Source: Kayfunavirus LM33P1
Length of the DNA stretch: 38,979 nt
Sequence record: OZ035813.1
Reading direction: 5' to 3' (one strand)
This document shows, in pieces, positions 840 through 38,979 of the stretch. The translations under genes and the position numbers were made by a program. Under the pieces are notes generated by a model that searched no databases, had not been told where the DNA came from, and saw nothing but the letters and a program-made list of their open reading frames with translations. Position 1 is the stretch's first letter; the number at the start of each line of letters is the position of its first letter.

Positions 840-2599
840 GTAAAGACTTAGTGGCGCGTCAGGCGCTAATGACTGCACGTATGAAGTCAGACTTCGTGTT
901 CTTCCTGTTCGTCCTGTGGAAAGCTCTGTCGCTCCCAGTCCCGACTCGCTGTCAGATTGACATGGCGAAGAAACTATCGGCTGGGGACAACAGGCGCTTC
1001 ATCCTACAGGCGTTCCGTGGTATAGGGAAGTCCTTCATTACGTGTGCCTTCGTTGTCTGGAAGCTATGGAACAACCCAGACTTGAAGTTCATGATTGTGT
1101 CGGCCTCAAAGGAGCGAGCCGATGCTAACTCCATCTTCATCAAGCGAATCATCGACCTCATGCCTCAGCTTCAGGAACTCAAACCTAAGCAGGGACAGCG
1201 AGATGCGGTTATTAGCTTCGACGTGGGACCTGCCAAGCCAGACCACTCACCTTCGGTTAAGTCCGTTGGTATCACTGGTCAGTTGACTGGTAGTCGTGCT
1301 GACATCCTGATTGCCGATGACGTGGAGGTTCCGAACAACTCAGCGACTCAGGCTGCACGAGACCGTCTATCAGAGCTTGTGAAAGAGTTCGACGCTATCC
1401 TGAAGCCGGGAGGTACGATCATCTATCTGGGTACTCCTCAGAACGAGATGACCCTGTACCGTGAGCTGGAAGGTCGTGGGTACACCACTACTATCTGGCC
1501 CGCTCGTTATCCACGCGACAGGAAGGACTGGCAGTCTTACGGCGACCGTCTGGCTCCTATGCTTCAGGAAGAGCTGGAAGAGGACCCTGAGTCCTTCTAC
1601 TGGCGTCCGACTGATGAAGTACGCTTCGATGATACGGACCTGAAGGAACGTGAGCTGTCCTACGGTAAAGCTGGCTTCGCTCTACAGTTCATGCTTAACC
1701 CGAACCTGAGTGATGCCGAGAAGTACCCTCTTAAGCTCCGTGACCTTATCGTAGCCGACTTGGACCCAGCGTCCAGCCCAATGGTCTACCAATGGTTGCC
1801 GAACCCTCAGAACAAGCGTGAGGACGTTCCTAACGTTGGACTCATGGGTGACTCGTACCACACGTATCAGACTGTAGGTTCTGCCTTCAGCTCATACACC
1901 CAGAAGATTCTGGTCATTGACCCTAGTGGTCGTGGTAAGGATGAAACTGGATATGCGGTACTGTACCAGCTCAACGGCTACATCTTCGCTATGGAAGTTG
2001 GTGGCATGCGTGGTGGTTATGAAGACTCTACGCTGGAAGCCTTGGCTAAGATTGGTCGTAAGTGGAGGGTCAACGAATACGTCATTGAGGGTAACTTCGG
2101 TGATGGTATGTACCTTGAGTTATTCAAGCCTGTAGCTGCCCGTATCCATCCTGCTGCTGTAACTGAAGTGAAGAGTAAGGGTCAGAAAGAACTCCGCATC
2201 TGTGACGTTCTGGAGCCTATCATGGGGTCTCACAGACTTATCGTTAACGCTGCCGCTATCGTCCAAGACTACCAGTCAGCCTCTGATAAGGATGGTGTTC
2301 GTAACCCTATCTACTCTCTCTTCTACCAGATGACTCGTATCTCTCGTGAACGTGGAGCATTGGCACATGATGACCGACTTGATGCGCTGGCTATCGGTGT
2401 ACAGTTCTTCGTTGAGTCGATGGCTAAGGATGCCAACAAAGGCGAACGTGAAGTCACTGAGGAGTGGCTGGAGGAACAGATGGAGAACCCACGGAAAGGC
2501 TTCGAGTCCATCCACACTGAGTTCTGGGACAATGGGGTCCGGGTAACTCACGATACGGACGACGAGCTTGGACTAGGGTCATACGTTACGTTCCACTAG
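836..2599 (+). CDS. terminase large subunit (T7 gp19-like)
   Basis: 587 aa; strong similarity to recalled T7 gp19 ([64 protein letters not shown]); start is TTG at 836 preceded by AGGAGG, N-terminal length matches T7. Confidence 0.95.
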
Positions 2600-2609
2600 C
2601 TGAATGAAT

Positions 2610-2656
2610 AACTATAGGTGAAAGCTGCATTAATAAGCAGCTAGTAACCTATAGTT
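2610..2656 (+). repeat. imperfect inverted repeat after the terminase gene
   Basis: AACTATAGG..AGCTGC ATTAATAA GCAGCT..CCTATAGTT; central 6-bp stem with 8-nt loop and outer 9-bp arms. Confidence 0.5.
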
Positions 2657-2693
2657 ACTACCAGTCTAACATACTGTTTTACAAGGAGTTTGG

Positions 2694-2716
2694 ACTTAAC
2701 TATCACTATAGGGAAG
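2694..2716 (+). promoter_or_regulatory. phage RNAP promoter (phiOR-like, right end)
   Basis: ACTTAACTATCACTATAGGGAAG; predicted +1 at 2711. Confidence 0.75.
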
Positions 2717-2896
2717 ACCCCCGGTTACTTATAGTATTACTATAGTGAATATACATATGCAGACTTTATGCAAGACCTTAGGAGGCAGACTCCGAGTTCT
2801 TACCTAAGGCTTGCACCGATGGAAGGAGGGTGATATTAATCATAATCCCTCCAATACAGATAGTCACCGACCATAGATACAGGAGGTATGTAGCAT

Positions 2897-3055
2897 ATGG
2901 CAAAGACCAAAGCTGTACTTAAAGCTCTGGCGACCAATCGAGCTACATACAGGTTTCTTACTGCTGTTCTACTTGCTGCTGGCGTTACTGCTGGAAGTCA
3001 GTGGGTCGGGTGGGTCGAGACTCTCGTATGTTCTCTGGTCTCTCAGTGTAATTAA
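2897..3055 (+). CDS. small hydrophobic protein (gene 19.5 position)
   Basis: 52-codon ORF with AGGAGG 10 nt upstream, downstream of a phage promoter; below the length cutoff of the supplied ORF track. Confidence 0.45.
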   Translation: MAKTKAVLKALATNRATYRFLTAVLLAAGVTAGSQWVGWVETLVCSLVSQCN

Positions 3056-3164
3056 CGCAATCATGATAACAATCAACGAAAGGAGGTAGGGATGGACGAG
3101 GAGTCTTATGGGTCGTTCTCTGACGAAGATTATCAGACGGAGTGGGAATACGCGCATTGAAGAC

Positions 3165-3205
3165 CTAAGGTCAGTTCATAGCTGACGCTACTCTACTGAC
3201 CTTAG
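3165..3205 (+). repeat. 10-bp perfect inverted repeat (CTAAGGTCAG / CTGACCTTAG) near the right genome end
   Basis: arms separated by 21 nt; non-coding context. Confidence 0.5.
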
Positions 3206-3368
3206 CTACTGTAGTCAAGGACTTTAGGTAACACCTTAAGAGAAGCTCACTTAGGGTCATCCTACTTATTGGTCTATCCTAGTGTCGCCTGACCTACGGT
3301 CCTTGACCTACAGTGGCTGTGGCCTACAGTAGTGACGATGAGTTTTGGACAAAAAGTTTGAGACCACA

Positions 3369-3580
3369 TCTCACACTTCAAGAACCTCAAGTCTCCCCAT
3401 AGGCCCTCTTTCAGTCCAGACCAAAGGCCCTACCCGTTACTGCTCCTTGCAGTCACAGCCAGTCTATCATAAGGTTGGACAGATGGTCAAGACTTAAGGT
3501 CAACGATAGGCTGAGGCTATGGCTTAGGGAAGGACGATAGGTTGGGACTATTGGTCTTCTTTGAGTCTCTATCTGTATAA
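3369..3580 (+). repeat. predicted direct terminal repeat / genome left end (collapsed single copy)
   Basis: begins TCTCACA like the T7 left end and ends GAGTCTCTATCTGTATAACC resembling the end of the T7 terminal repeat; boundaries approximate. Confidence 0.35.
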
Positions 3581-3700
3581 CCATAAGTCACAACCATAGG
3601 TCACAGCCTACCTCTCACAACCATAAGTCATAACCTACAGTCTCACTAACCTACAGTCTCAACCATAAGACACCAACACCTACAGTCATAGACCTACAGT
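3581..3700 (+). repeat. array of short direct repeats (CCATAAGTCA / CCTACAGTC) next to the predicted terminal repeat
   Basis: at least 9 copies of the 8-10 bp motifs within 120 bp; analogous to the CCTAAAG heptamers at the T7 left end. Confidence 0.6.
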
Positions 3701-3790
3701 TAATAGACACAAGGCTATAGACTTAAGGTCTAAGACATGTTAGTCAAAGACTATATCCTCTTACACCATGGGGCCGACGATAGCTTAATC

Positions 3791-3840
3791 AATATTATTT
3801 CAAATTACCTATTGACTATAGGTCCAGACTATGGCCTAAT
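3791..3840 (+). promoter_or_regulatory. candidate host sigma70 early promoter (A1-like) with AT-rich upstream element
   Basis: AT-rich AATATTATTTCAAATTACCT then TTGACT at 3812-3817; -10 weak (CCTAAT at 17-bp spacing or TAATAG). Confidence 0.35.
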
Positions 3841-3951
3841 AGCTTCCGTCAACACGACACGGCAACAACCGGATAGTGAAGACGCCGGTCCGGTCCGGTT
3901 AAGTAGTCAGCCTGTAAGACATACGAACAACAGGCAACCGACAGAAAGTAG

Positions 3952-3981
3952 TTGACAGGCAGTAACGACTTAAAGTAATAT
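3952..3981 (+). promoter_or_regulatory. host sigma70 early promoter (T7 A3-like)
   Basis: TTGACA, 18-bp spacer, TAATAT; downstream GTACCACAT..GAAAC..GCTCTTTAACAATCTGG resembles the T7 A3 leader. Confidence 0.6.
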
Positions 3982-4095
3982 GTACCACATCGAAACAACG
4001 GTGATGACCAACACTGAATGGTCTACCTGAAGTCCTCTGACTGAAGGGAATGCTCTTTAACAATCTGGATAAACTCTTAATGTGCGCCGATAGCG

Positions 4096-4151
4096 ACTAA
4101 CTACAGGGCCTTTGAGTCTACATCTGAAGGCCCTGACTGATAGTCACTAAC
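4096..4151 (+). promoter_or_regulatory. early-region repeated hairpin element (copy 1)
   Basis: contains GGCCCTGACTGATAGTCACTAAC and a 7-bp stem CAGGGCC/GGCCCTG; lies just upstream of the first early ORF. Confidence 0.4.
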
Positions 4152-4158
4152 TTAAAGG

Positions 4159-4413
4159 ATGGACACTATGAAACACTTAAGCACAATCACTAATCGCAAT
4201 GAAGTATTCGTGAACACTAAAGGTTATGCGTGGATTCAGCTTAAAGAGATGACAGGAGCGCGTCACCGTGTGGTAGTGCGCAAGGTATCAAGCAAGCAGT
4301 TCAGCAACTACAGCGTCGATACTGTGCGTATAGACAACGAGACATACCTGATAGACTCGCAGATAACCGTGAGTCCTACAGTGGGCGTCTCAGCTCCTTA
4401 TTTCGCTAACTGA
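4159..4413 (+). CDS. hypothetical early protein, first gene after the host promoters
   Basis: 84-aa ORF about 90 nt downstream of the T7-like leader GCTCTTTAACAATCTGG; no recognisable motif; alternative ATG at 4168. Confidence 0.5.
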   Translation: MDTMKHLSTITNRNEVFVNTKGYAWIQLKEMTGARHRVVVRKVSSKQFSNYSVDTVRIDNETYLIDSQITVSPTVGVSAPYFAN

Positions 4414-4420
4414 GAGTGAT

Positions 4421-4468
4421 TAACTACAGGTCGTTAGACTGATAGCGGCCTGACTGATAGTCACTAAC
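4421..4468 (+). promoter_or_regulatory. early-region repeated hairpin element (copy 2)
   Basis: ACTACAGGTC..GGCCTGACTGATAGTCACTAAC upstream of ocr. Confidence 0.4.
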
Positions 4469-4496
4469 ACATAATTAACTTTGAGAGGATATAACT

Positions 4497-5000
4497 ATGG
4501 AACGTAATGCTAACGCATACTATGAGCTGCTGGCTGCAACCGTTGAGGCATTTATCGAGCGTATTCAGTACGACCACCTGACTCAAGATGACGACTACAG
4601 CGCTGCGCTGCATGAGGTCGTAGACGGTCAGGTTCCACACTATTACCACGAGATTTTTACGGTGATGGCTGCTGATGGTATAGACAACGAGTTCGAAGAC
4701 TCTGGGATGATACCTGAAACCAAGGACGTAACGCGTATCCTACAAGCTCGCATCTATGAGGCACTTTATAACGACGTGTCTAATAGCTTGGATGTAGTCT
4801 GGTTTGAGGATGAAGAGGCAGACGAAGAGGATGAATATTGGGTAGTTGACGCTAAAACAGGCGCAATAATTGTGCAAGCTGTAGCTCTTGAGGTCGCTAC
4901 TGCATGTGCCAAGGTCAACTATGTGATAGGTCGCCACCTTCAGGTGGAAGACATCAATGATAACGTAGTGTTTGACCCTGCTGCTGAGGACTGCGAGTGA
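4497..5000 (+). CDS. ocr: Ocr-like anti-restriction DNA-mimic protein (T7 gp0.3 homolog) with C-terminal extension
   Basis: residues 1-110 align with recalled T7 Ocr ([45 protein letters not shown] versus T7 [45 protein letters not shown]); acidic patch, then about 50 extra residues absent from T7 Ocr. Confidence 0.8.
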   Translation: [167 protein letters not shown]

Positions 5001-14569: not shown

Positions 14570-16273
<1,704 letters not shown>

Positions 16274-16315
16274 TCGGGACATCGCTGACTATAAGAATTT
16301 TACGGAGGACCGTTA

Positions 16316-16480
16316 GTGTTAAAGAAACTTAAAGCTCGCTACCATCGGTTCATGTACAAATGGTGGAGCGACGAAGCAACCTGCCTGTCGAACATTCTGG
16401 GAGACCAGCGGTTCAACTCTGAGGCATGGAAGAAAGCTAACCGGAAGTTCATGTATCACTTCTTGCGTACAGACTTCTAG
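16316..16480 (+). CDS. hypothetical small protein
   Basis: 54-codon ORF with GTG start 6 nt after GGAGGA, between the primase-helicase and DNA polymerase genes. Confidence 0.3.
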   Translation: MLKKLKARYHRFMYKWWSDEATCLSNILGDQRFNSEAWKKANRKFMYHFLRTDF

Positions 16481-16526
16481 GTCTAGACTCAAGGTCATTC
16501 ACATAGAGTGGCCTTTATGATTAGAC
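16481..16526 (+). promoter_or_regulatory. RNase III-like processing hairpin upstream of the DNA polymerase gene
   Basis: same conserved core with outer stem GTCTA/TAGAC. Confidence 0.4.
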
Positions 16527-16543
16527 TAAACGGAGGATTAACC

Positions 16544-18715
16544 ATGTTTGACCTTAAGAGTATCTGGGGTTCTGACATCGAGACCAACGGTCTCCTTGAT
16601 ACAGTCTCCCAGTTTCACTGTGGGGTCCTGATTAACGCCGAGTCGAATGAGACCCTTAAGTATGGGGTAGCTCCGATGGTCGGTATCGTCGGTGGCTTCA
16701 AAGAGTATGTGCAGAAGGTGGAAGAGATTGCCGCATCACCTGATGGTATGCTGGTATTCCACAACGGTATCAACTATGACGTCCCGGCTATTGACAAGCT
16801 GAAGCGTCTGTACTTCGGGAAACGCTTTAACTTCCCGAAACACAAGATGATTGATACCTTGGTGCTGGGTCGCTTGATGTATCCCAACATTAAGTTCTCA
16901 GACATGGGCGCAGTGAAAGCTGGTCGTCTGCCACCTAAGATGATGGGACGCCAGTCTCTTGAGGCTTGGGGCTATCGTCTCGGTGAGATGAAAGGTGAGT
17001 ACAAACACGATTACGTTGCCAAGTGCAAGGCTGAAGGTATCGAATATAAGGCTGGGGACGAATGGTTGTTCCCGTCTCAGGAGATGCTAGACTATAACGT
17101 TCAAGACGTTGTGGTCACACTGGCGTTGTTCAAGAAGTTCCTGACTGACAAGTATTACTTCCAGTCTGAACAGTTCGCTTTCGACCAGATTTATGCGTTG
17201 CGTCTGGAACATGATGCTGCGTGGACCTGTGCGAAGATGGAACGTAACGGCTATCCGATGAACACCGAGATGGTCGAAGGCTTATATCGTGAACTCACCG
17301 TCAAACGTGCAGAGCTGCTGGACAAGCTGCGTTCGACTTTCGGTAGCTGGTACGCACCAAAGGGCGGAAAGGAGTTCTTCAAGCACCCACGGACAGGCAA
17401 GGACCTTCCGAAGTATCCGAGAGTCGTGTATCCTAAGGTCGGTGGCATCTTTAAGAAGCCGAAGAACAAAGCTCAACGCTTAGGTCTTGAACCCTGTGAA
17501 CGCGATACGCGAGACACGATGGAGGGAGCACCATTCACGCCAATCACTTACGTTGAGTTTAATCCGGGAAGCGGAGACCACTTAGCGAAAGTCTTGATGG
17601 AGCGTGGCTGGGAGCCTGTGGACTTCACTGACACCGGGAAACCTGTAGTCGATGACGAGACGTTGGAACACGTTAAGTTACCAGACGCAGAGGCTCAGGC
17701 TTGCGTAGAGCTGGTCCGTGAGTATCTGGTAGTCCAGAAGCGCATCGGTCAGGCGGCTGAAGGTAAGAACGCATGGTTGAAACTTGTAGGTCAAGACGGA
17801 CGTATGCACGGTTCAATCAACCCATGCGGGGCAGTAACCGGACGTGCGACCCATAGTGCACCAAACATGGCTCAGGTACCTGCTAACGGTGCTCCGTATG
17901 GTGAGACTTGCCGTGGTGCTTTCGGTGCAGCGTGGAACAAGAAGGACGGCAAGCCAGACCCTTGGGTTCAAGTAGGCGTGGATGCTTCAGGTCTTGAGCT
18001 TCGTTGTCTGGGGAACCGAGCGGCACCGTTTGATGGTGGCGACTATGCTAAGACTGTGGTAGAAGGCGACATCCACTGGGCCAACGCAGTCAACGCTGGG
18101 TTAGCACCTAACGTCCCACGCGACAAGTCGAGCCATGACCACGATGCTTTCCGTAATAACGCCAAGACGTTCATCTATGCGTTCCTGTATGGCGCAGGGG
18201 CCGCTAAGATTGGACTGATAGTTGGTGGTGGTAAGAAGGAAGGTGCGGCCCTGATGAAGAAATTCATTGAGGGTACACCAGCTATCAAGGACCTCAGGGA
18301 AGCTGTGAGTAATACGTTAATCTCAGACTCTAAGTGGGTGGACGGAGAGAACATCGTTAAGTGGAAACGCCGTTGGCTGCGTGGACTTGATGGTCGCCGT
18401 ATCCACATCCGGTCTCCACACTCAGCACTGAACGCATTACTTCAAGGTGATGGTGCGGTAGTCTGTAAGACTTGGTTCACTTGGCTGGAGCGTAACCTCG
18501 AAGCTAAGGGCTATGTTCACGGGTGGGATGGGGACTTTGCGATTATGGCATTTGTCCACGATGAAGTTCAGGTTGCTGCCCGCACCATGGAGATTGCTGA
18601 GGACATCGTTAAGGTTGCTCAGTCCACGATGCGCGAGGTGGGTGAGTTCTATCAGTTTAAATGCGTATTGGACACCGAGGGCAAGATAGGCCCTACGTGG
18701 AAAGAATGCCACTAA
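16544..18715 (+). CDS. DNA polymerase (gp5)
   Basis: about 723 aa from ATG 16544 (SD GGAGGA); exonuclease motif SDIETNGL, polymerase motifs RDNAKTFIYAFLYGAG, HDEVQV; matches T7 gp5 over its length. Confidence 0.95.
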   Translation: MFDLKSIWGSDIETNGLLDTVSQFHCGVLINAESNETLKYGVAPMVGIVGGFKEYVQKVEEIAASPDGMLVFHNGINYDVPAIDKLKRLYFGKRFNFPKHKMIDTLVLGRLMYPNIKFSDMGAVKAGRLPPKMMGRQSLEAWGYRLGEMKGEYKHDYVAKCKAEGIEYKAGDEWLFPSQEMLDYNVQDVVVTLALFKKFLTDKYYFQSEQFAFDQIYALRLEHDAAWTCAKMERNGYPMNTEMVEGLYRELTVKRAELLDKLRSTFGSWYAPKGGKEFFKHPRTGKDLPKYPRVVYPKVGGIFKKPKNKAQRLGLEPCERDTRDTMEGAPFTPITYVEFNPGSGDHLAKVLMERGWEPVDFTDTGKPVVDDETLEHVKLPDAEAQACVELVREYLVVQKRIGQAAEGKNAWLKLVGQDGRMHGSINPCGAVTGRATHSAPNMAQVPANGAPYGETCRGAFGAAWNKKDGKPDPWVQVGVDASGLELRCLGNRAAPFDGGDYAKTVVEGDIHWANAVNAGLAPNVPRDKSSHDHDAFRNNAKTFIYAFLYGAGAAKIGLIVGGGKKEGAALMKKFIEGTPAIKDLREAVSNTLISDSKWVDGENIVKWKRRWLRGLDGRRIHIRSPHSALNALLQGDGAVVCKTWFTWLERNLEAKGYVHGWDGDFAIMAFVHDEVQVAARTMEIAEDIVKVAQSTMREVGEFYQFKCVLDTEGKIGPTWKECH

Positions 18716-29130: not shown

Positions 29131-29180
29131 AAGGGCCTATAGATTTACCTTAACTATCACTATAGGGACTATAGGCCCTT
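29131..29180 (+). repeat. 12-bp perfect inverted repeat bracketing the phi13-like promoter
   Basis: AAGGGCCTATAG at 29131-29142 and CTATAGGCCCTT at 29169-29180. Confidence 0.6.
29148..29170 (+). promoter_or_regulatory. phage RNAP promoter (phi13-like)
   Basis: CCTTAACTATCACTATAGGGACT; +1 at 29165; bracketed by a 12-bp inverted repeat. Confidence 0.75.
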
Positions 29181-30253: not shown

Positions 30254-32536
30254 ATGGCTAGTAATATTGAATCAGCTCTGGCTAATCGGACTATGGGTCG
30301 TGGCAGGGCTCCGGGTAAAACTATCGCCGTCAACTATCAAGCAGCCAGCGTTCAGGCTCCTACTGGTGACTCCGGTCTGGCTCGTGCGTTAACCAACTTC
30401 GTTGAGTCTGGGACAGGATTGTACAAGCAGTTCAAGGACGAGGAGAAGACACGGGCCGACGAGCGGTCTAACGAGATTATCCGTAAACTGACACCTCAGC
30501 AAAGACGTGAGGCTATCCAGAACGGTACATTGCTGTATCAGGATGACCCTTACGCTATGGAAGCACTTCGAGTCAAGACGGGCCGTAACGCTGCCTTTGC
30601 GGTTGATGACGAGATTAACGTTAAGATTCAGAACGGTGAGTTCCGTACACGTCAGGACATGGAAGAGTATCGCCACCAGAGACTTCAGGACGCCGCTAAG
30701 TCCTATGCTGAAGAGGCTGGTATTAACCCTACCGACGAGTTCTTCCAGCGCGGGTTCAACGATAACATCACAGACCGAAACATCGCTATCTATGGGTCTT
30801 TCAATAAGTATTTCAGCAAGCAGTCTGAAGAGACAGCAATGTTGAACACTCGTATTGAGATGAACTCGTTCCTTAACGATGGGGACCTGATGCGTTCGCC
30901 TGAGTCTGGAAAGACCTTCATGGCCTACCTTCGGGATGGACTGACGACTGCTGCTATCCCTTCGGACCAGCGAGCACGAGAGGTAATCACCCAGACTGTC
31001 CGTGACGCAATCCAGAAGTCAGGAGGCTCAAACTTCCTACAGCAAGTCCGTGGCGAGCGTATCACCCTTAACGGTGTGGACGCTACAGTCGAAGAGATTG
31101 TAGGCCCTGACGTCTTCAATGCTGCTGTGGTTGAGGCTCAAGGTACCGAGTACAAGTTGGTGGCTAAGTATCAGGAAGACTTATCGTTAGGCGTTCAGTC
31201 TGCGATTCTTCAGGACGACCCAACCATCGGTCTGGACCAGATTCAGAAACTCAAGGAGCAGAACAACCTGCTTCAGCCGGGTGAAGAACTCACGCCTCAG
31301 CGTCAGATGCTTATTAATGCCGAAGCCAGCTTACTGGAAGCGGTCAAGCGTAAGTCCGCTGAACAGGCGAAGGAGAACACTAAGTTAATCCAGACCCAGA
31401 ACAAGCAACTAGTCATAGACCAAGTGTATCAGCGACGTCTGGCTGGGGACAACGTGTCCACCAACTATGAGGACCTTCCGGTCTCAGATGCTACAGGAGA
31501 GTTCAAACGTTCAGACATGAACAACTATGCGTCTGCCAAGCTACAGCAGATTGACCAGATGGACATCCCTGAGGCTGCTAAGGACGCCCAGAAGGTGGCA
31601 TTGTTAAGGGCTGACACTAACAACGGTCCGTTCCGTAATGCCTTCCAGACGCTTACTCAGGACGCTGCTGGTGAGTGGCAAGCTGCGGTCATCCGTGGAC
31701 AGTACGACCCAGACAAGATGAAACGCTTCGAGTCTCTTCGTCGTGCCTACACTCAGGACCCTTCAAGTTTCGCTGCTCTGTATCCTGACCAAGCTCAGTT
31801 GTTCTCTACGTTCGACCAGATGGACAAGATGGGTCTGGACCCTCAGACGATGATTGAAGCTGATAAGCAAGCTGCAAGTCAAAGCCGTGAGATGCGCATG
31901 GAGTCAGACAAGGCGTGGCAGGAGTTGAAGAACGACTCTCGGAATAAGGACCTTTCGCGTCTTCCTACGTCTCTGGACGCAAGTGCTCGTAAGGTCTGGG
32001 ACTCATGGTACTATCGTACAGGTAACGCTGACGCTGCAACTCAGCAGACTCAACGCTGGCTGAATGAGAACACCGTAACGTTCCAGTCTGATGGTTCTGA
32101 TGGTAAGTCCATCGGCATGGTGTCCAAGCACCAGCTTATGGTCGGGGATAACCCAGAGTCGTGGCAGGTGGGTCGAGACATTATCGACACCGCTCGTAAG
32201 CAGCTCATTAAGGACAACCCTTGGGTAGTGAACTCTCAGTTGTCCGTTGTTGAACAGAACGGCTCTATCTTCCTCCAAGACGCTACGGGGACTATTCGTA
32301 TTCGATACGATAAAGAACTTGTAGGTAAACTCTACCGCGAACAACAGCAGAAGGTACAAGATGCCGCATATGCTCAGGCAGAACGTGACGCTAACAAGCG
32401 AGCGCGTATCGTCGGGACTAAAGCTGCTGGTGACAAACGTCGAGCTGACCGAGAGGCCAACATCGAGAAGAGCGGTGGGATGTACAATGACGTCTCACTG
32501 GAGGGTATCGCAAACGTACTAATTGGTAAGGAGTAA
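30254..32536 (+). CDS. internal virion protein C (gp15)
   Basis: 760 aa, size and position of T7 gp15; assignment by gene order. Confidence 0.9.
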   Translation: MASNIESALANRTMGRGRAPGKTIAVNYQAASVQAPTGDSGLARALTNFVESGTGLYKQFKDEEKTRADERSNEIIRKLTPQQRREAIQNGTLLYQDDPYAMEALRVKTGRNAAFAVDDEINVKIQNGEFRTRQDMEEYRHQRLQDAAKSYAEEAGINPTDEFFQRGFNDNITDRNIAIYGSFNKYFSKQSEETAMLNTRIEMNSFLNDGDLMRSPESGKTFMAYLRDGLTTAAIPSDQRAREVITQTVRDAIQKSGGSNFLQQVRGERITLNGVDATVEEIVGPDVFNAAVVEAQGTEYKLVAKYQEDLSLGVQSAILQDDPTIGLDQIQKLKEQNNLLQPGEELTPQRQMLINAEASLLEAVKRKSAEQAKENTKLIQTQNKQLVIDQVYQRRLAGDNVSTNYEDLPVSDATGEFKRSDMNNYASAKLQQIDQMDIPEAAKDAQKVALLRADTNNGPFRNAFQTLTQDAAGEWQAAVIRGQYDPDKMKRFESLRRAYTQDPSSFAALYPDQAQLFSTFDQMDKMGLDPQTMIEADKQAASQSREMRMESDKAWQELKNDSRNKDLSRLPTSLDASARKVWDSWYYRTGNADAATQQTQRWLNENTVTFQSDGSDGKSIGMVSKHQLMVGDNPESWQVGRDIIDTARKQLIKDNPWVVNSQLSVVEQNGSIFLQDATGTIRIRYDKELVGKLYREQQQKVQDAAYAQAERDANKRARIVGTKAAGDKRRADREANIEKSGGMYNDVSLEGIANVLIGKE

Positions 32537-32540
32537 CATA

Positions 32541-35500
32541 ATGGCGACTCGTGGTATTCGCAATAACAATCCGGGTAACATCCGGGTAAGTAAGGACCAA
32601 TGGGAAGGGATGACTGGAGATGATGGCGCATTCGTCACCTTCGATAGTCCAGAGTCTGGCGTCCGAGCTTTAGGTAAAAACCTGCTGTCCTACGGTCGCC
32701 AAGGTTATGACTCCATCGAGAAGATTATCAACCGATGGGCACCTCCTAACGAGAACGACACTAAGGCTTATATTGACTCAGTGGTGGCTGCAACTGGTAT
32801 TCCAGCTACCCAGAGTCTAGACCTATCTGACCCTGACACCCTGTCTTCTCTGGCACAAGCTATCAGCTTCCATGAGACAGGATCACGGTACGACCCTGAA
32901 GTCTATCAGAAGGGAGTCGCACGGGCACTCAATGGCATTAGCCCAAAGACTCCACCAGTAAGCGCTAACGTATTTGACGCACTCACGGAAGGACTCAAGG
33001 CTAAACCTAAAGTAGATCTGGGCGAGAACCTTCCGACCGCTGCTGGTCTAAACATTGAGGGTCAAGCACCTGAAGCTCCCAACGAATCGTTCGGTGAGAT
33101 GTTCTATAAGTCTACTGGCGAGACCATGCAGGAACGAGAGGATCGCTCTACGTGGTTCGGTTTCGGCTCGGCTACAGAAGCTGAAGTGAAGAACTCTATG
33201 GTCGGCGTGGCTATCCGCGCTGGTCAGACCGAGGACTCACTTGATGTCATTGGCGATGTGTTTAACCCGACCCGCTGGAACAACCATAAGTGGTCTCGTG
33301 AGGAGCTGGACCAGATTCGTAACGCTGGAGTTCTTCCTCAGTATTACGGGGTCATTACTGGTGGCTCCCCTCAGAACCTGACCGAGCTTATTAACTTGGC
33401 GCTTGAGAATCAGAAGTTGGACCAAGAGAAGGCCAAGGCTGGGATTGGTGCTCAGTTAGCTGCTGGTGTGATTGGGGCTGGCGTGGACCCTCTGACCTAC
33501 GTTCCTATTGCTGGGCAGGTAGGCAAAGGTGGGAAGCTAGTCAACAAGATGTTCACTGTGGCAGCTCAGTCTGGTGCTCTGGCTGGTGTGTCTGAGATGG
33601 CCCGTACCTCAGTGGCTGGTGGTGATGCTCATGTGGCTGAAGCTATCCTTGGCGGTGCTCTCTTCGGTGGTGGCATGACTGCTATCGCTGATGGGTTAGG
33701 CAGAGCCTTAGGCCGCAACACTAATGAGTTTGCTGGCCCAGCTACACGTCTGGAAGCTCGTGAGACCGCTCGTAACGTTGATGGTCAGGACCTGTCTCGT
33801 CTTCCTATTCAGGAAGGTGAGCAGACCTTTAGTCATCAAGGTGTTAAGTTCGCAGACGTTCCGAACGAGCCGGGTAGTGTACGACTGGAAGATGGTTCAA
33901 TCCTGATTGGTGAGAATCCTCTGAACCCTCAGACACGTAAAGTCTTTGACGAAGTGATTGAGCCTGAACGTGCCGCTGCTGGTGTGAACCTTGGTGGGCT
34001 GACTGAGATTGGCCTGAAGCTGCTTCGGTCCGAGAACCCTGAGATTCGTGGAGTAGCTGCTGACTTAGTACGTTCACCGACTGGTATGCAGTCTGGGGCC
34101 TCAGGTAAAATAGGGACAACTGCGTCAGACGTATTCGAGAGACTTCGTGCTGTGGACCATCGGTTCTACAATGACATCGACGATGCGGTTACTGAGGCAC
34201 TAAAGGACCCGTACTTCCAGACAGCATTCTGGCGAGACTCTGGCGCATTCCGTCAAGACATCTATCAGCGCGTGTCTATGGCTATCGAAGATGGTAGCGG
34301 AAACCTGAAGGCTGAATTGACTCCGGGAGAACTGAAAGTCTATGACCTGCTGAAGAACCAGTTTGACGCCAAGCGTGAGATGATGGAGAACCCCGCTATG
34401 TTTGGTCGCCCAGACGCTCAGTCTATCTTTCCGGGTAGCCGCTTCAAGGGAACATACGTCCCGCATGTGTATAGCAACCAGATGAAGGAGCTGTACATCA
34501 AGGAGCTTGGGAGTCCAGAGGCACTACAGGAGGCCATCAAGAAGTCATGGTTGACCAGCTATGCGTCTCGACCTGAAGTCAAGAAACGTGTGGACGAGGC
34601 ACTCTTAGAGGCTGACCCTACGTTGACTCCAGAAGGACTTGCGGCTGCGGTCGATAAGTACGCCAACGATAAGGCTTATGGTATCTCTCACACCGAGCAG
34701 TTCGAGCGTTCATCCGTAATGGAAGAGAACATCAATGGTCTGGTGGGTCTGGAGAACAACAGCTTCCTTGAGGCTCGTAACCTGTTCGATAGCGATATGT
34801 CAATCGTCCTACCTAACGGTCAGACCTTCAGTGTCAACAACCTGCGTGAGTGGGACATGGACAAGATTGTCCCGGCCTACAACCGTCGAGTTAATGGCGA
34901 TATTGCTATCATGGCTGGTACAGGCAAGACCACGAAGGACATGAAGGACTTGGTTGAGACCCTGATGAACAAGGCTGGGGATGACGGTAAGTTGAAAGGT
35001 GAAGTATCTACCTTACGTGACACTTTGAAGATTCTAACTGGTCGTGCTCGACGTGATGGTGCTGATGATGCGGCCTTCGCTACCGTGATGCGCACAATGA
35101 CAGACCTATCGTTCTTCGCTAAGAATGCCTACATGGGTGTTCAGAACTTAACGGAGATTGGTGGTATGCTGGCTCGTGGTAACGTTCGTGCAATGCTTCA
35201 TGGAGTCCCAATTTTCCGTGACCTAGCCTTCCGTAACAAGAAGGTTGGGGCCTCAGAGATTAAGGACCTGCACAATGTTATCTTCGGTAAGGAACTGGAT
35301 GACTCAATCCGTCCGTCTAAACAGGATGTCATTGACCGTCTGCGATCTTACAGTGACCTCGGTCGTGGTACAGCTACAGCTCTGGGGACTGCCAAGTATT
35401 ACACTGGCGAACTTGCAGTACGCTCTCCGTTCACTAAAGTCCTCAACGGTACGACCAACTACCTGTTAGATGCTGGACGTCAGGGCTTCCTGTCTGACAT

Positions 35501-36428
35501 CGTGGAGCATAGCCTGACTGGTAGTAAGCGTAAGTTCGATGACCGCTGGCTGAAGACCGCTGGTATCTCTGACGAGCAGTGGAAGGGCATTAAGTCCCTA
35601 ATCCGTGAGTCAGTGACTCGTGGTCCAGACGGGAAGTACACCATCAAGGATAAGAAGGCGTTCAGTCAGGACCCAAGGGCTATGGACCTCTGGCGTATGG
35701 GTGACACCATCGCTGACGAGACGTTACTCCGGCCTCATAAGCTGTCAAACATGGACGCCAAGGCTTATGGTCCTCTCGCTAAGACTGTCCTTCAGTTTAA
35801 GAACTTCGTCATCAAGTCTATCAATGGGAGAACCATGCGAACCTTCTATAACGCCACGAAGAACAACAGAGCGATTGACGCTGCACTGTCGACCGTGATG
35901 TCTATGGGTCTGGCTGGTATCTACTACATGGCTCAGGCGCATGTCAAGGCTTATGCTATGCAGGATGGTCGAGACCGTGACTACCTTAAGCAAGCTCTGG
36001 ACCCAACGATGATTGGCTATGCGGCCCTGTCCCGTAGTTCACATCTTGGTGGCCCACTTGGGGTAGCTAACATTCTGGGTGGAATCGCTGGGTATGAGGA
36101 CACTAAGATGCTCCGCTCGTCAATCCTTCCGCGCTCACCTACCGAGAAGACGGAGAAGCCAATCGCCTTTGGTGCTGCTTCCAGTGGTCCGGTAATGAAT
36201 GTGGTCGGCAACTTCCTTGAGCAGGTCCCGGCTTTCGGCTATGCTGCTAACGTTGGTGCTACGGCTTACAACTTGGCGGGATACCTCAAGGCTGATACCC
36301 GTGTCAACGAGCGAGACTACATGACCGGGATGTATAACACGTTCCGTGAACTTGTACCGAATGACCCGATTACCCAGAAGTTGCTGCTTGGAACGTTTGA
36401 GGAGCAGGGCATCCACATCAAGGACTAA
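32541..36428 (+). CDS. internal virion protein D (gp16) with divergent N-terminal domain
   Basis: about 1295 aa from ATG 32541; from about residue 200 onward close match to T7 gp16 (RSPTGMQSGASGK, MENPAMFG, NGDIAIMAGTGKTTK, FKNFVIKSINGRTMRTFY, GTFEEQG); first about 190 residues lack the T7 transglycosylase-like sequence. Confidence 0.9.
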   Translation: MATRGIRNNNPGNIRVSKDQWEGMTGDDGAFVTFDSPESGVRALGKNLLSYGRQGYDSIEKIINRWAPPNENDTKAYIDSVVAATGIPATQSLDLSDPDTLSSLAQAISFHETGSRYDPEVYQKGVARALNGISPKTPPVSANVFDALTEGLKAKPKVDLGENLPTAAGLNIEGQAPEAPNESFGEMFYKSTGETMQEREDRSTWFGFGSATEAEVKNSMVGVAIRAGQTEDSLDVIGDVFNPTRWNNHKWSREELDQIRNAGVLPQYYGVITGGSPQNLTELINLALENQKLDQEKAKAGIGAQLAAGVIGAGVDPLTYVPIAGQVGKGGKLVNKMFTVAAQSGALAGVSEMARTSVAGGDAHVAEAILGGALFGGGMTAIADGLGRALGRNTNEFAGPATRLEARETARNVDGQDLSRLPIQEGEQTFSHQGVKFADVPNEPGSVRLEDGSILIGENPLNPQTRKVFDEVIEPERAAAGVNLGGLTEIGLKLLRSENPEIRGVAADLVRSPTGMQSGASGKIGTTASDVFERLRAVDHRFYNDIDDAVTEALKDPYFQTAFWRDSGAFRQDIYQRVSMAIEDGSGNLKAELTPGELKVYDLLKNQFDAKREMMENPAMFGRPDAQSIFPGSRFKGTYVPHVYSNQMKELYIKELGSPEALQEAIKKSWLTSYASRPEVKKRVDEALLEADPTLTPEGLAAAVDKYANDKAYGISHTEQFERSSVMEENINGLVGLENNSFLEARNLFDSDMSIVLPNGQTFSVNNLREWDMDKIVPAYNRRVNGDIAIMAGTGKTTKDMKDLVETLMNKAGDDGKLKGEVSTLRDTLKILTGRARRDGADDAAFATVMRTMTDLSFFAKNAYMGVQNLTEIGGMLARGNVRAMLHGVPIFRDLAFRNKKVGASEIKDLHNVIFGKELDDSIRPSKQDVIDRLRSYSDLGRGTATALGTAKYYTGELAVRSPFTKVLNGTTNYLLDAGRQGFLSDIVEHSLTGSKRKFDDRWLKTAGISDEQWKGIKSLIRESVTRGPDGKYTIKDKKAFSQDPRAMDLWRMGDTIADETLLRPHKLSNMDAKAYGPLAKTVLQFKNFVIKSINGRTMRTFYNATKNNRAIDAALSTVMSMGLAGIYYMAQAHVKAYAMQDGRDRDYLKQALDPTMIGYAALSRSSHLGGPLGVANILGGIAGYEDTKMLRSSILPRSPTEKTEKPIAFGAASSGPVMNVVGNFLEQVPAFGYAANVGATAYNLAGYLKADTRVNERDYMTGMYNTFRELVPNDPITQKLLLGTFEEQGIHIKD

Positions 36429-36446
36429 ACTATCACTATAGGAAAC
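36424..36446 (+). promoter_or_regulatory. phage RNAP promoter (phi17-like)
   Basis: ACTAAACTATCACTATAGGAAAC; +1 at 36441. Confidence 0.75.
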
Positions 36447-36492: not shown

Positions 36493-38673
36493 ATGTCCAC
36501 GATTACACAATTCCCTTCAGGAAACACTCAGTACAGGATAGAGTTCGACTACCTAGCCAGAACGTTTGTTGTTGTTACGCTGGTGAATAGCTCTAACCCT
36601 ACCCTGAACCGTGTACTGGAAGTTGGTCGAGATTACCGATTCCTTAATCCAACGATGATTGAGATGTTGGCTGACCAATCAGGTTTCGACATCGTTCGTA
36701 TTCACCGTCAGACTGGAACTGACTTAGTGGTAGACTTCAGGAATGGCTCAGTGTTGACAGCTAGTGACCTGACCAATTCAGAGCTTCAGGCTATCCATAT
36801 TGCAGAAGAAGGTCGAGACCAAACGGTTGACTTAGCGAAGGAATATGCCGATGCTGCTGGTAGCTCTGCTGGCAACGCTAAGGATAGCGAGGACGAATCA
36901 CGCCGAATCGCTGCGAGTATCAAGGCAGCTGGTAAAATTGGCTATATTACCCGTCGCTCCTTCGAGAAAGGCTTCAACGTTACAACATGGAACGAGGTCC
37001 TGCTATGGGAAGAGGATGGTGATTATTACCGCTGGGATGGTACGCTTCCAAAGAACGTTCCCGCTGGTTCAACTCCTGAATCATCTGGTGGTATTGGGCT
37101 GAGTGCGTGGGTTAGTGTTGGTGATGCGTCACTTAGAGCAAACCTGGCTGATAGTGATGGCGCTAAATACATAGGCAGTGGAGAAAGGACATTACTTGAG
37201 CACAACAATGATGTTTTGCACTCAAAAGACTTTCCAACACTGCAGGCAGCTATAGATGCATCTTTGCAAAAAAATGATCTACTGGTGTCTCCTGGCAATT
37301 ATACTGAAAAAGTTACTATTGGAAACGCGCAGTTAAAAGGTGTTGGCGGGGCCACGGTACTAAAAACTCCGGCAGACTTTACAAACACTGTTCAGGTTAA
37401 TTTAGCTACACCTCATTGGCAATTCCGCCATAGTGGTGGTTTTGCTATAGATGGTTCCGGGACAACCGGGGCCGTAGGTATTAGTTTTGACCCGTCAGAC
37501 CAATATTCCGGACGTCATAATTTTAGTGATGTATACATCCACAACATCAACAAGGCCATTCAGAAGCCTTCCGGGAACATCGGCAATACTTGGAGAAATA
37601 TTGGGATATCTACGTGTGATTGGGGGTATTACGCGATTAGTGGCTCAGAGATGCATTGCGGGGCCGATACCCTCTACAATATCCACTTCGATGGCATCTC
37701 CACCTATGCAGTCTATCTAGACGGCACTGTCGATAATGGCGGGGGGGGCGCATGGTGGCTTAAAGACTCCATTATTGAGGCTTCCGGAGGTGGCGGGATA
37801 TACTTAAAAAGTAAATCGGGCGACTGTCCTACATCTCCATGCGGGGTATCCAATATATGGATGGAAGCGATCGCAACATCACCGGCTGTTCAGGTAGACG
37901 GCGTGGCGCAAAAACCGCGAGTTCTCAAGTTGGTAGACACAGCGATATTCTTTGCTGAGTATTCTTATCTCAACAACATCGAGCTATCCAACTCCAACTT
38001 AGTAACTTATGGTTGCCGTTTTGACAACGCTGATGGCAATCAGGATATTGTCGTGGATGCACAAAGTACCATTGTAGCCCATGACGTGTATTTAAACGGC
38101 AGTTCTGGAAAGGACGTTATTGTGGAGTCCGTAGCATCGCAATCTGCAACGATAGCTGCCACAAACTTATCTCTGAGGGGCAACTTAACAAGAGGGAGAG
38201 TATTTAATACGCCGACAGGGAATAAATTAATGGCTATCACATTTGACTCAGGTAGCCATAATTTTTCTGGCAGCGGCACCGTTAACGGTTCGACTGTATC
38301 TGACGGACTTCACGCCGCTACATGTACCGAATTTTCATTCCCCGGAGCCGGTTTATATGAAATGGTAGCGACAAGAACAACCATTACATCCGGTAGATGG
38401 TACGTGTGGGGAGTTAACTCACGCCTACAATCTGGCTCGGCGGATATTAGTATAACGTCAGGTATTACCATGGGTAGTGTTTACACAAAGCCGGGGGAGT
38501 GGATTAGCACTTTCGGTGTAGGAAAGGCATCTACCACTGGCACTGTAGCGCTATACGTTTCCACAGGAGGAGGTTCGGGAGCTACGGTCAGATTCAGTGA
38601 CTTTTTCATCGCTGAGTTTACGACGCAAGCTCAGGCTTTAGCTTTCGCCAATTCAAGGATGTCGTTATCATAA
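36493..38673 (+). CDS. tail fiber / tailspike (gp17): T7-like N-terminal adaptor fused to beta-helix-like C-terminal domain
   Basis: 726 aa; N-terminus (EFDYLARTFVVVTL, DYRF, DFRNGSVLTASDL, IHIAEEGRDQTVD) matches the T7 gp17 N-terminal domain; remainder is rich in G/N/S/T repeats typical of parallel beta-helix tailspikes and has a different base composition. Confidence 0.9.
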   Translation: MSTITQFPSGNTQYRIEFDYLARTFVVVTLVNSSNPTLNRVLEVGRDYRFLNPTMIEMLADQSGFDIVRIHRQTGTDLVVDFRNGSVLTASDLTNSELQAIHIAEEGRDQTVDLAKEYADAAGSSAGNAKDSEDESRRIAASIKAAGKIGYITRRSFEKGFNVTTWNEVLLWEEDGDYYRWDGTLPKNVPAGSTPESSGGIGLSAWVSVGDASLRANLADSDGAKYIGSGERTLLEHNNDVLHSKDFPTLQAAIDASLQKNDLLVSPGNYTEKVTIGNAQLKGVGGATVLKTPADFTNTVQVNLATPHWQFRHSGGFAIDGSGTTGAVGISFDPSDQYSGRHNFSDVYIHNINKAIQKPSGNIGNTWRNIGISTCDWGYYAISGSEMHCGADTLYNIHFDGISTYAVYLDGTVDNGGGGAWWLKDSIIEASGGGGIYLKSKSGDCPTSPCGVSNIWMEAIATSPAVQVDGVAQKPRVLKLVDTAIFFAEYSYLNNIELSNSNLVTYGCRFDNADGNQDIVVDAQSTIVAHDVYLNGSSGKDVIVESVASQSATIAATNLSLRGNLTRGRVFNTPTGNKLMAITFDSGSHNFSGSGTVNGSTVSDGLHAATCTEFSFPGAGLYEMVATRTTITSGRWYVWGVNSRLQSGSADISITSGITMGSVYTKPGEWISTFGVGKASTTGTVALYVSTGGGSGATVRFSDFFIAEFTTQAQALAFANSRMSLS

Positions 38674-38817
38674 AAACAACCTCAGCCGAATCGGGTTATT
38701 TATCATCAGAACGGTATTGAATCATCGAAGGTTGTGGAGGTAGAGGCTAACTACACGTTGACCAACGTATGATAACAACTTTGGGTCACGGACGACCCGC
38801 TTTAAACTGGAGGTTTT

Positions 38818-38979
38818 ATGATTGAGTTAGACTTCAAGAATGAGGTCCTCAAAGCCTCGCCTATCGTCGGGACCGCTGCGGCTGATGGTGCCAGTCGGTT
38901 CTTCTTTGGGCTAACGCTCAACGAATGGTTCTACGTCGCTGCTATCGCGTACACCGTGGTGCAGATTGGCGTCCTAATT
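38818..38979 (+). CDS. holin (gp17.5), 3' end runs off the window
   Basis: MIELDFKNEVLKASPIVGTAAADGASRFFFGLTLNEWFYVAAIAYTVVQIG closely matches T7 holin; ORF is still open at the last base and stays in frame into bases 1-33 if the window is circularly joined. Confidence 0.8.
   Translation, partial: MIELDFKNEVLKASPIVGTAAADGASRFFFGLTLNEWFYVAAIAYTVVQIGVLI

Follow-up and report, generated by a model that had tools for sequence, protein, structure and literature searches.

This analysis concerns gene 17 of the T7-like Escherichia phage Kayfunavirus LM33P1 (hereafter LM33_P1), the tail fiber or tailspike gene, in sequence record OZ035813.1, a stretch of 38,979 nucleotides (nt) that was analyzed as a whole and is referred to as the window. 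The coding sequence occupies positions 36493..38673 of the plus strand (ATG at 36493, with the TAA stop codon ending at 38673) and encodes 726 amino acids (aa), exactly as given in the initial annotation, which was based on a listing of open reading frames (ORFs). The whole gene is 100% identical, in a megablast search, to the corresponding region of LM33_P1 in LT594300.1 / NC_031937.1 (Kayfunavirus, 38,979 bp), and its product is identical in sequence to BOX15_gp44 (YP_009324518.1), annotated as ‘tail fiber protein'. The window is a circular rotation of this complete GenBank record, equal to it in length, so that the window position is the record position plus 3376. In the annotation of NC_031937.1, gene 17 is located between the gene for an internal virion protein (the gp16 equivalent) and the holin gene, that is, in the position typical of a T7-like late operon. 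The protein consists of a T7-type anchor domain, a neck domain and a large receptor-binding module, and most of what follows concerns the origin, structure and probable function of this module.

The first of these parts, the T7 gp17-type, particle-binding N-terminal domain, is encoded at 36520..36837 (+): the Pfam family PF03906 (Phage_T7_tail) matches aa 10-115 with a score of 59.7 bits against the cut-off of 25.2, and the T7 gp17 chains in the PDB (7boz/8dsp/8e4g) align over aa 6-116 with E-values of ∼1e-16 to 1e-17. The neck, at 36943..37125 (+), is the Tail_spike_N domain (PF18668), which scores 70.3 bits at aa 151-211 (cut-off 25) and is also detected in PDB alignments, with 4oj5, 5w6h, 5w6f and 9occ aligned over aa 146-233, and the tailspike proteins (TSPs) TSP1, TSP3 and TSP4 of phage CBA120 over aa 146-229. 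The alignment with PDB 9vvr_A, an 843-aa tail spike protein from an entry with 18 chains, contains ∼18 mismatches, as printed, over aa 1-225, so that the two are nearly identical there. The conserved anchor as a whole reaches approximately aa 212. The initial annotation considered the first ∼200 codons to be T7-like; this holds for only ∼115-150 residues because PF03906 covers aa 10-115 and T7 gp17 aligns with aa 6-116, whereas aa 151-211 belong to another domain, PF18668. A comparison with the PHROGs families yields 47 tail-protein families for the N part of the gene (codons 1-212), but only phrog_27367 for the C part (nt 37130-38673), a contrast that itself portrays the anchor as promiscuous and the module joined to it as specific.

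The mosaic structure of the gene is apparent from the distribution of matches in a DNA search, in which 183 phage records were retrieved with gene 17 as the query. Only 11 of the 183 cover the gene fully, and all of these are LM33_P1-like Kayfunaviruses, with 96-100% identity. Approximately 160 records match from nt 1 to ∼645 of the gene only, at 96-98% in the listed Kayfunaviruses (the identity over codons 1-212 is likewise 96-98%), and among them are phages with a gene 17 product annotated as endosialidase or lyase. Thirteen records (ten 44-45-kb Kagunavirus-type siphoviruses), among them Golestan, phiEc3, phiEc4 and 22664BS2, match nt 677-2174 of the gene only, at 87-89%. Thus, when the N and C parts are compared separately, their closest relatives come from different phage lineages, Kayfunaviruses and Kagunavirus-type siphoviruses, respectively. 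The K1F-like phages have only nt 1 to ∼640 in common with gene 17 of LM33_P1, and no Pfam match to a beta-propeller sialidase or Peptidase_S74, as would be expected of a K1F-type endosialidase, was found.

Both breakpoints of the mosaic can be mapped by alignment. The 5' breakpoint interval, 37131..37155 (+), encodes aa 213-221 (SLRANLADS): the identity to Kayfunavirus IMEP24 is 97-98% up to 37130 and 41% over 37131-37147, and homology to the siphovirus tailspikes begins at ∼37148-37156, with 75-80% identity from 37148, and extends to the stop codon. The 3' breakpoint interval, 38674..38723 (+), consists of ∼50 nt that are seen only in LM33_P1-type phages; the homology to Golestan stops ∼4 nt past the stop codon of gene 17, that to Kayfunavirus PE3-1 resumes at ∼38720, and other T7-like phages match again from ∼38724. 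The gene is therefore a mosaic, as had been proposed, with the homology to the Kayfunavirus backbone lost at 37131-37155 and replaced by homology to siphovirus tailspikes from there to the stop codon. Within the module, which begins at 37156 and ends with the stop codon, the DNA identity is highest for Golestan (0.88), followed by a copy in a P22-like prophage (0.79), ES17 (0.64) and IMEP24 (0.50). The last of these, with 39% aa identity, is the only further Kayfunavirus in which a homologue of the module is present. Between LM33_P1 and Golestan, 112 codons of the module differ synonymously and 40 non-synonymously.

At 35-93% aa identity, the same module is found on at least five other types of anchor, in P22-like prophages, a Kuravirus and several siphoviruses. 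A protein search with aa 226-726 retrieved 58 cluster representatives, with 35-100% identity, which between them carry at least five kinds of anchor: that of the T7 type (726 aa); that of Kagunavirus, which begins with MSSGCGDVL (661 aa); an anchor that begins with MATVPTNNPIPSEDPRDLKF and contains PF18668 (661 aa), from a different, 45-kb siphovirus that carries TMP, NlpC/P60, SSB and ERF genes; the P22 head-binding domain PF09008 (644 aa), in a P22-like prophage; and an 842-aa form from a 46-kb siphovirus. Isolated phages that carry the module include the Kuraviruses ES17, myPSH1131 and myPSH2311, as well as Bp4/PD38-type phages, and Pseudoalteromonas phage pYD6-A encodes it at 31% identity. 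The finding of a single receptor-binding domain behind unrelated anchors, in several genera of phages (Kagunavirus, the 45-kb siphovirus, P22-like prophages and Kuravirus ES17, among others), bears out the proposal that it is a horizontally exchanged host-range module. The P22-like prophage copy adjoins an integrase gene and chromosomal genes with Pfam domains of the MlaA, FadL (Toluene_X) and fatty-acid-oxidation types. In draft assemblies and read sets, copies of the module that are 82-83% identical at the aa level are fused to the P22 head-binding domain. The prophage form seems to be rare because it is represented in such draft assemblies and read sets, whereas none of the 5,426 complete RefSeq Escherichia coli genomes searched gave a match to the module DNA. 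A 71% identical copy of the module, over 370 aa, is present at 15821-16954 of MZ417522.1 (‘Mycolicibacterium phage J1', 24,953 bp), a record of which the host label or the assembly looks doubtful.

The composition of the gene is not uniform either, although the difference is primarily one of codon choice. According to the initial annotation, the DNA becomes AT-richer from ∼37130, with A/T-ending codons, unlike the rest of the genome. The position and the preference for TTT, AAA and ATT codons held up, but there is no large step in the GC content: the raw GC is 0.502 in the genome, 0.487 in the N part and 0.466 in the C part. The GC content is lowest not in the tailspike module but at ∼2450-5000 of the window (0.446-0.455 in 1.5-kb windows), a region that corresponds to the genome ends and the early region of the record. 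Given this lower GC of the early region and the position of the C part at the 6th percentile of 1544-bp windows, raw GC alone was rejected as sufficient evidence, and tests of the GC content at third codon positions (GC3) and of synonymous codon usage were used for this reason. At synonymous sites, the C part does lie outside every background window. The GC3 is 0.563 in the background (9,972 codons), 0.453 in the N part and 0.436 in the C part, compared with the lowest value of 0.477 among the background windows of 505 codons; when conditioned on the amino acid sequence and the codon usage of the genome, the GC3 deficit corresponds to z = -5.15 for the C part and z = -2.85 for the N part, and the most deviant other gene has z = -2.4. 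The synonymous-codon likelihood per codon is -0.233 for the C part, with the lowest background window at -0.080, and -0.059 for the N part (15th percentile). The best single change point in codon usage comes after codon 203 (nt 37102), and 2 of 500 permutations equal its effect. Per 1000 codons, the C part contains 25.7 TTT, 21.8 AAA, 17.8 ATA and 27.7 ATT, vs 7.3, 15.5, 4.0 and 19.8, respectively; it prefers TTT over TTC, AAA over AAG and GGC/GGA/GGG over GGT, and uses more ATA. The encoded protein is also rich in glycine, asparagine, serine and threonine, as noted initially, with the combined fraction of 0.380 in the C part compared with 0.239 in the background and 0.31 in the highest other gene. 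Low GC3 is shared by the module in all compared carriers (LM33_P1, 0.435; Golestan, 0.437; the P22-like prophage, 0.372; ES17, 0.408; IMEP24, 0.304), so that AT-rich synonymous sites seem to be a property of the module family, whatever the backbone.

These data bear on the possibility that no horizontal transfer took place and that the C part instead diverged fast in place under selection for host range, its composition being a consequence of amino acid bias. Receptor-binding domains evolve fast, the amino acid composition of the C part is indeed unusual, and the N part, too, is low in GC3. However, the module DNA is 88% identical to that of siphoviruses with unrelated anchors and flanks and only 50% identical to the nearest Kayfunavirus homologue, both breakpoints are sharp, and the GC3 deficit remains after conditioning on the amino acid sequence. 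In practice, the siphovirus DNA identity and the breakpoint alignments refute divergence in place, which is exceedingly improbable, in favor of acquisition of the module by recombination.

Golestan itself was not the direct donor. The identity between the two modules is uneven, 0.73 in the first 150 nt, 0.88-0.98 in the middle and 0.75 in the last 120 nt, and because it is this low at both edges, Golestan is a relative of the exchange partner rather than the partner. The lower-identity edges correspond to window positions 37156-37305 and 38450-38673. This pattern points to additional recombination within the module or to a closer partner, as yet unsampled. In the P22-like prophage, the GC content of the module (0.40-0.47) is close to that of its neighbors (0.38-0.44), whereas the flanks of the module are less AT-rich than the module itself in both Golestan and LM33_P1. 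This weakly suggests long residence in lower-GC backbones but does not indicate a direction of transfer.

A candidate substrate for the exchange lies immediately upstream of the module, at the 3' end of the anchor (37015..37130, +). Compared with the anchor of the otherwise unrelated 45-kb siphovirus, the identity is 71% in this patch (77% in its segment 37015-37080) and 49% in the 81 nt that precede it; the patch includes the exact blocks CGCTGGGATGG and GCTGGTTCAACTCC, of 11 and 14 nt. It encodes the end of PF18668 (YYRWDG..P..VPAGSTP...GGIGL.AWVSVGDAS) and might be a homology arm for the exchange of receptor-binding domains. The start of the module, GATGG.GC.AA..ACATAGGCAG (encoding DGAK.IGSG), is conserved across the carriers and, partly, in IMEP24. 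A motif has been proposed to aid the exchange of receptor-binding domains (Pas et al. 2023, PMC10408124), and the patch probably corresponds to that motif.

On the other side of the module, the spacer between gene 17 and the holin gene, 38674..38817, has a GC content of 0.444 and so is AT-rich, in agreement with the initial annotation, in which the foreign composition ran on into this spacer. The larger part of it, however, 38724..38817 (+), upstream of holin gene 17.5, is the intergenic spacer of the backbone, 91-93% identical to that in Kayfunaviruses and other T7-like phages that carry different receptor-binding domains. The AT-richness of this part does not belong to the foreign module because it is conserved Kayfunavirus backbone, and only the ∼50 nt next to the stop codon are specific to the LM33_P1 type. 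A terminator scan found no terminator-like site in 38674-38817, and the predicted RNA fold of 38668-38730 is no better than that of shuffled sequences (z = 0.47). A 40-nt stretch at 38693-38730 is 92.5% identical to Salmonella Skatevirus PHA46_2 (L005, 3001-3040), ∼300 nt 3' of the tailspike gene of that phage.

For the structure of the module, an AlphaFold2 monomer model of aa 215-726 was computed from a 32-sequence alignment, with a mean predicted local distance difference test score (pLDDT) of 90.5 and a predicted template modeling score (pTM) of 0.87. In this model, the first part of the module (37156..38217, +) is an N-terminal helical cap (aa 234-256) followed by a right-handed parallel beta-helix, with strands at aa 261-563, that is, the predicted fold of the receptor-binding module is the pectin-lyase fold; the second part (38221..38670, +) is, according to the AlphaFold2 secondary structure, a C-terminal beta-sandwich (aa 577-726) with a short helix at the end. 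The initial suggestion of a beta-helix rather than a T7 fiber is thus supported by the model, and a T7-like fibrous tip, which was to count against that suggestion, is not predicted: neither the shaft nor the small C-terminal tip of a full-length T7-type fiber is in evidence, the alignment with T7 gp17 being confined to aa 6-116 and the model of aa 215-726 being different. The best Foldseek matches in the PDB are CBA120 TSP4, KP32gp38, the K2-2 TSP and the Sf6, HK620 and P22 tailspikes, and the C-terminal domain locally matches the CBM22 jelly rolls 4xuo/4xup (target-normalized template modeling (TM) score ∼0.6). Among the predicted structures in BFVD, the model superposes on the tail fibers of ES17, PD38 and pYD6-A with TM-scores of 0.91-0.94. 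At E-values of up to 1, aa 222-726 match no Pfam family, including Pectate_lyase_3, Beta_helix and Peptidase_S74.

The initial annotation also described the protein as resembling a polysaccharide depolymerase, an activity that is inferred. Seven acidic residues of the beta-helix (D392, D425, E429, E458, E489, D511 and D522) are conserved in at least 30 of the 32 homologues, down to 35% identity, and this conservation makes them candidates for the active site of a glycosidase. It could be argued that the beta-helix is a non-catalytic module that recognizes the polysaccharide without cleaving it, given that no catalytic motif of a curated family is detected (no Pfam or NCBIfam match) and that the accessible literature reports no activity. 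This is quite unlikely considering the conservation of the seven acidic residues, the spacing of ∼30-33 residues from D425/E429 to E458, which resembles that of the catalytic pairs in the P22, Sf6 and HK620 tailspikes, and the observation that the nearest structural neighbors are almost all enzymes. A catalytic role of the beta-helix thus remains the preferred interpretation.

The probable target of this putative enzyme is suggested by the hosts. Strain LM33 belongs to ST131-O25b:H4 (PMC5434335), LM33_P1 lyses O25b strains of both ST131 and ST69 (PMC5388864), and the O25b-positive strain DSM22664 was the isolation host of both Kayfunavirus 22664BS1 and Kagunavirus 22664BS2 (PMC8614997). The modules of the latter two phages are, respectively, 100% and 90% identical to that of LM33_P1 at the aa level. 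Cleavage by beta-elimination requires a uronic acid, and none is known from the O25b repeat unit, so hydrolysis appears more plausible. The principal alternative is that the module is a depolymerase or lyase of a capsule (K-antigen) or exopolysaccharide, for example, one that acts on K5/heparosan-like polymers, rather than an O25b hydrolase. The only homologue with binding data, the tail fiber protein (TFP) of ES17, is reported to bind heparan sulfate and has been likened to K5 lyase, not to an O-antigen hydrolase (PMC7885116), which keeps a capsule-like or heparosan-like target, or dual tropism, as a minority interpretation. Nevertheless, a capsule target appears unlikely because serogroup O25b is common to the strains reported to be lysed, whether of ST131 or of ST69, because O25b-positive hosts yielded phages of two genera with this module, and because the O25b repeat is not known to offer uronic acid to a lyase; the fold as such cannot separate hydrolases from lyases.

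Taken together, these lines of evidence favor, with a probability of about 0.76, the interpretation of gene 17 as a modular tailspike gene, with a T7-type anchor, a neck and a recombined beta-helix module that is most likely a hydrolase of the O25b O-antigen. Several observations weigh against this interpretation. The GC3 of the N part is itself somewhat low, so that composition alone marks no sharp boundary; the identity to Golestan drops at the edges of the module; and complete E. coli genomes lack a DNA match. Furthermore, sequence searches of Pfam, NCBIfam and the PDB found nothing for the C part, so that the fold assignment rests on the predicted monomer model, and the global TM-scores of this model to solved tailspikes are low, 0.3-0.45 in Foldseek. 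The literature searched contains no enzymatic or binding data on LM33_P1 gp17 and nothing specific on a phage depolymerase directed at O25b, and the reports on ES17-TFP point to a different glycan.

Under the favored interpretation, residues 1 to ∼150 would, by analogy with T7, plug six trimers of the protein into the junction of the tail adaptor and nozzle, and residues 151-211, the Tail_spike_N domain, would serve as the neck. The exchangeable receptor-binding module, residues 222-726, with the predicted beta-helix followed by the beta-sandwich, would recognize the host surface polysaccharide; most likely, it binds the O25b O-antigen of the host lipopolysaccharide and cleaves it as a glycoside hydrolase. 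Such cleavage would allow the short tail to reach the outer membrane. The module was probably joined to the Kayfunavirus anchor by recombination, with a crossover just 3' of the patch that is conserved in the anchors of several lineages, and the recombination partner would have carried a module close to that of the Kagunavirus siphoviruses. The module has no Pfam family and no solved structure, and is represented in at least six phage lineages plus the Pseudoalteromonas phage. It is conceivable, if doubtful, that the LM33_P1-type module is a beta-helix glycosidase family of new specificity that both cleaves the O25b O-antigen and binds host heparan-sulfate glycans; if so, the phages that target ST131 would possess dual tropism for bacterial and mucosal glycans.

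Apart from the gene itself, the locus contains a phage-RNA-polymerase promoter-like site, AAACTATCACTATAGGAAAC, at 36427..36446 (+), directly 5' of gene 17, which is part of the backbone and not of the swapped module. The pattern occurs nine times in the window with at most three mismatches, always on the plus strand, compared with no occurrences in dinucleotide-preserving shuffles. The nine sites, with the consensus AAACTATCACTATAGG(G/A)A, start at 2697, 6212, 9533, 11400, 12274, 20544, 23383, 24368 and 36427. A scan of gene 17 for sigma-70 promoters was uninformative, with 4 sites found vs 3.9 expected. Downstream, the ORF of the class II holin (17.5) begins at 38818 and runs across the window end into nt 1-33; because the window is a rotated record, this ORF is split by the window ends and missing from the ORF listings. 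Upstream, the ORF of the 1,301-aa internal virion protein (32523-36428) starts mechanically with TTG at 32523, compared with the ATG at 32541 (record position 29165) that is annotated in the record.

The pandemic ST131-O25b:H4 clone of E. coli is a potential target of phage therapy with LM33_P1, and the module probably sets the host range of this phage. The mapped breakpoints, 37131-37155 and 38674-38723, together with the patch at 37015-37130, provide a design for swaps of receptor-binding domains on a Kayfunavirus chassis, and aa 215-726 alone might be of use as a probe or depolymerase with specificity for O25b.

Among the known systems, T7 gp17 occupies the same gene position, between gene 16 and holin gene 17.5, and its N-terminal particle-binding domain is homologous to that of LM33_P1 gp17, with aa 12-122 of the T7 protein aligned to aa 6-116. 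Beyond this domain, the two proteins have different architectures: T7 gp17 continues into a shaft in the form of a coiled coil and ends in a small beta-sandwich tip, which binds rough lipopolysaccharide; in place of shaft and tip, LM33_P1 has PF18668 and the predicted beta-helix tailspike. The PF18668 neck, lacking in T7, is common to the CBA120-type tailspikes, including the CBA120 TSPs, and some siphovirus tailspikes. A conserved T7-type N-terminus and a pectin-lyase-like C-terminus were reportedly already described in the original LM33_P1 paper by Dufour and colleagues in 2016. The tailspikes of P22, Sf6, HK620 and CBA120 (TSP1-4) share with the LM33_P1 model the right-handed parallel beta-helix as the receptor-binding fold, but show only 9-14% identity to it, with no sequence-level match, and have another C-terminal domain; there is, nevertheless, a direct link to P22, given the fusion of the LM33_P1-type module to a P22-type head-binding domain in a prophage. 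The homologue with binding data, ES17-TFP, contains the same module (64% aa identity over 504 residues, with the predicted structures superposed at a TM-score of 0.94) on another anchor, in a much longer protein (1021 aa, Kuravirus); a domain common to LM33_P1, Golestan, myPSH1131, myPSH2311 and ES17 has been noted (Green et al. 2021, mBio, PMC7885116).

The horizontal exchange of O-antigen-specific receptor-binding domains of tailspikes between phage genera, namely, Kayfuna-, Kaguna-, Lederberg-, Uetake-, Gamaleya-, Kutter-, Justusliebig- and Nouzillyviruses, has been described by Pas et al. (2023, Virol J, PMC10408124). The tailspikes in that study resemble the LM33_P1 protein in combining a conserved N-terminal anchor with a swappable C-terminal receptor-binding domain and come from the same genera. 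They cover O18, O78, O103, O104 and O157, among others, and the K1 capsule, with O25 and LM33_P1 unmentioned, and their downstream terminator-like motif three has no counterpart in LM33_P1, in which the spacer shows no significant fold. The swapping of tailspike modules is thus already well documented, and gene 17 of LM33_P1 is one more clear example rather than a new process; the present analysis contributes the mapped positions of both breakpoints, the change point in codon usage, a wider list of anchors and a confident model of the fold.

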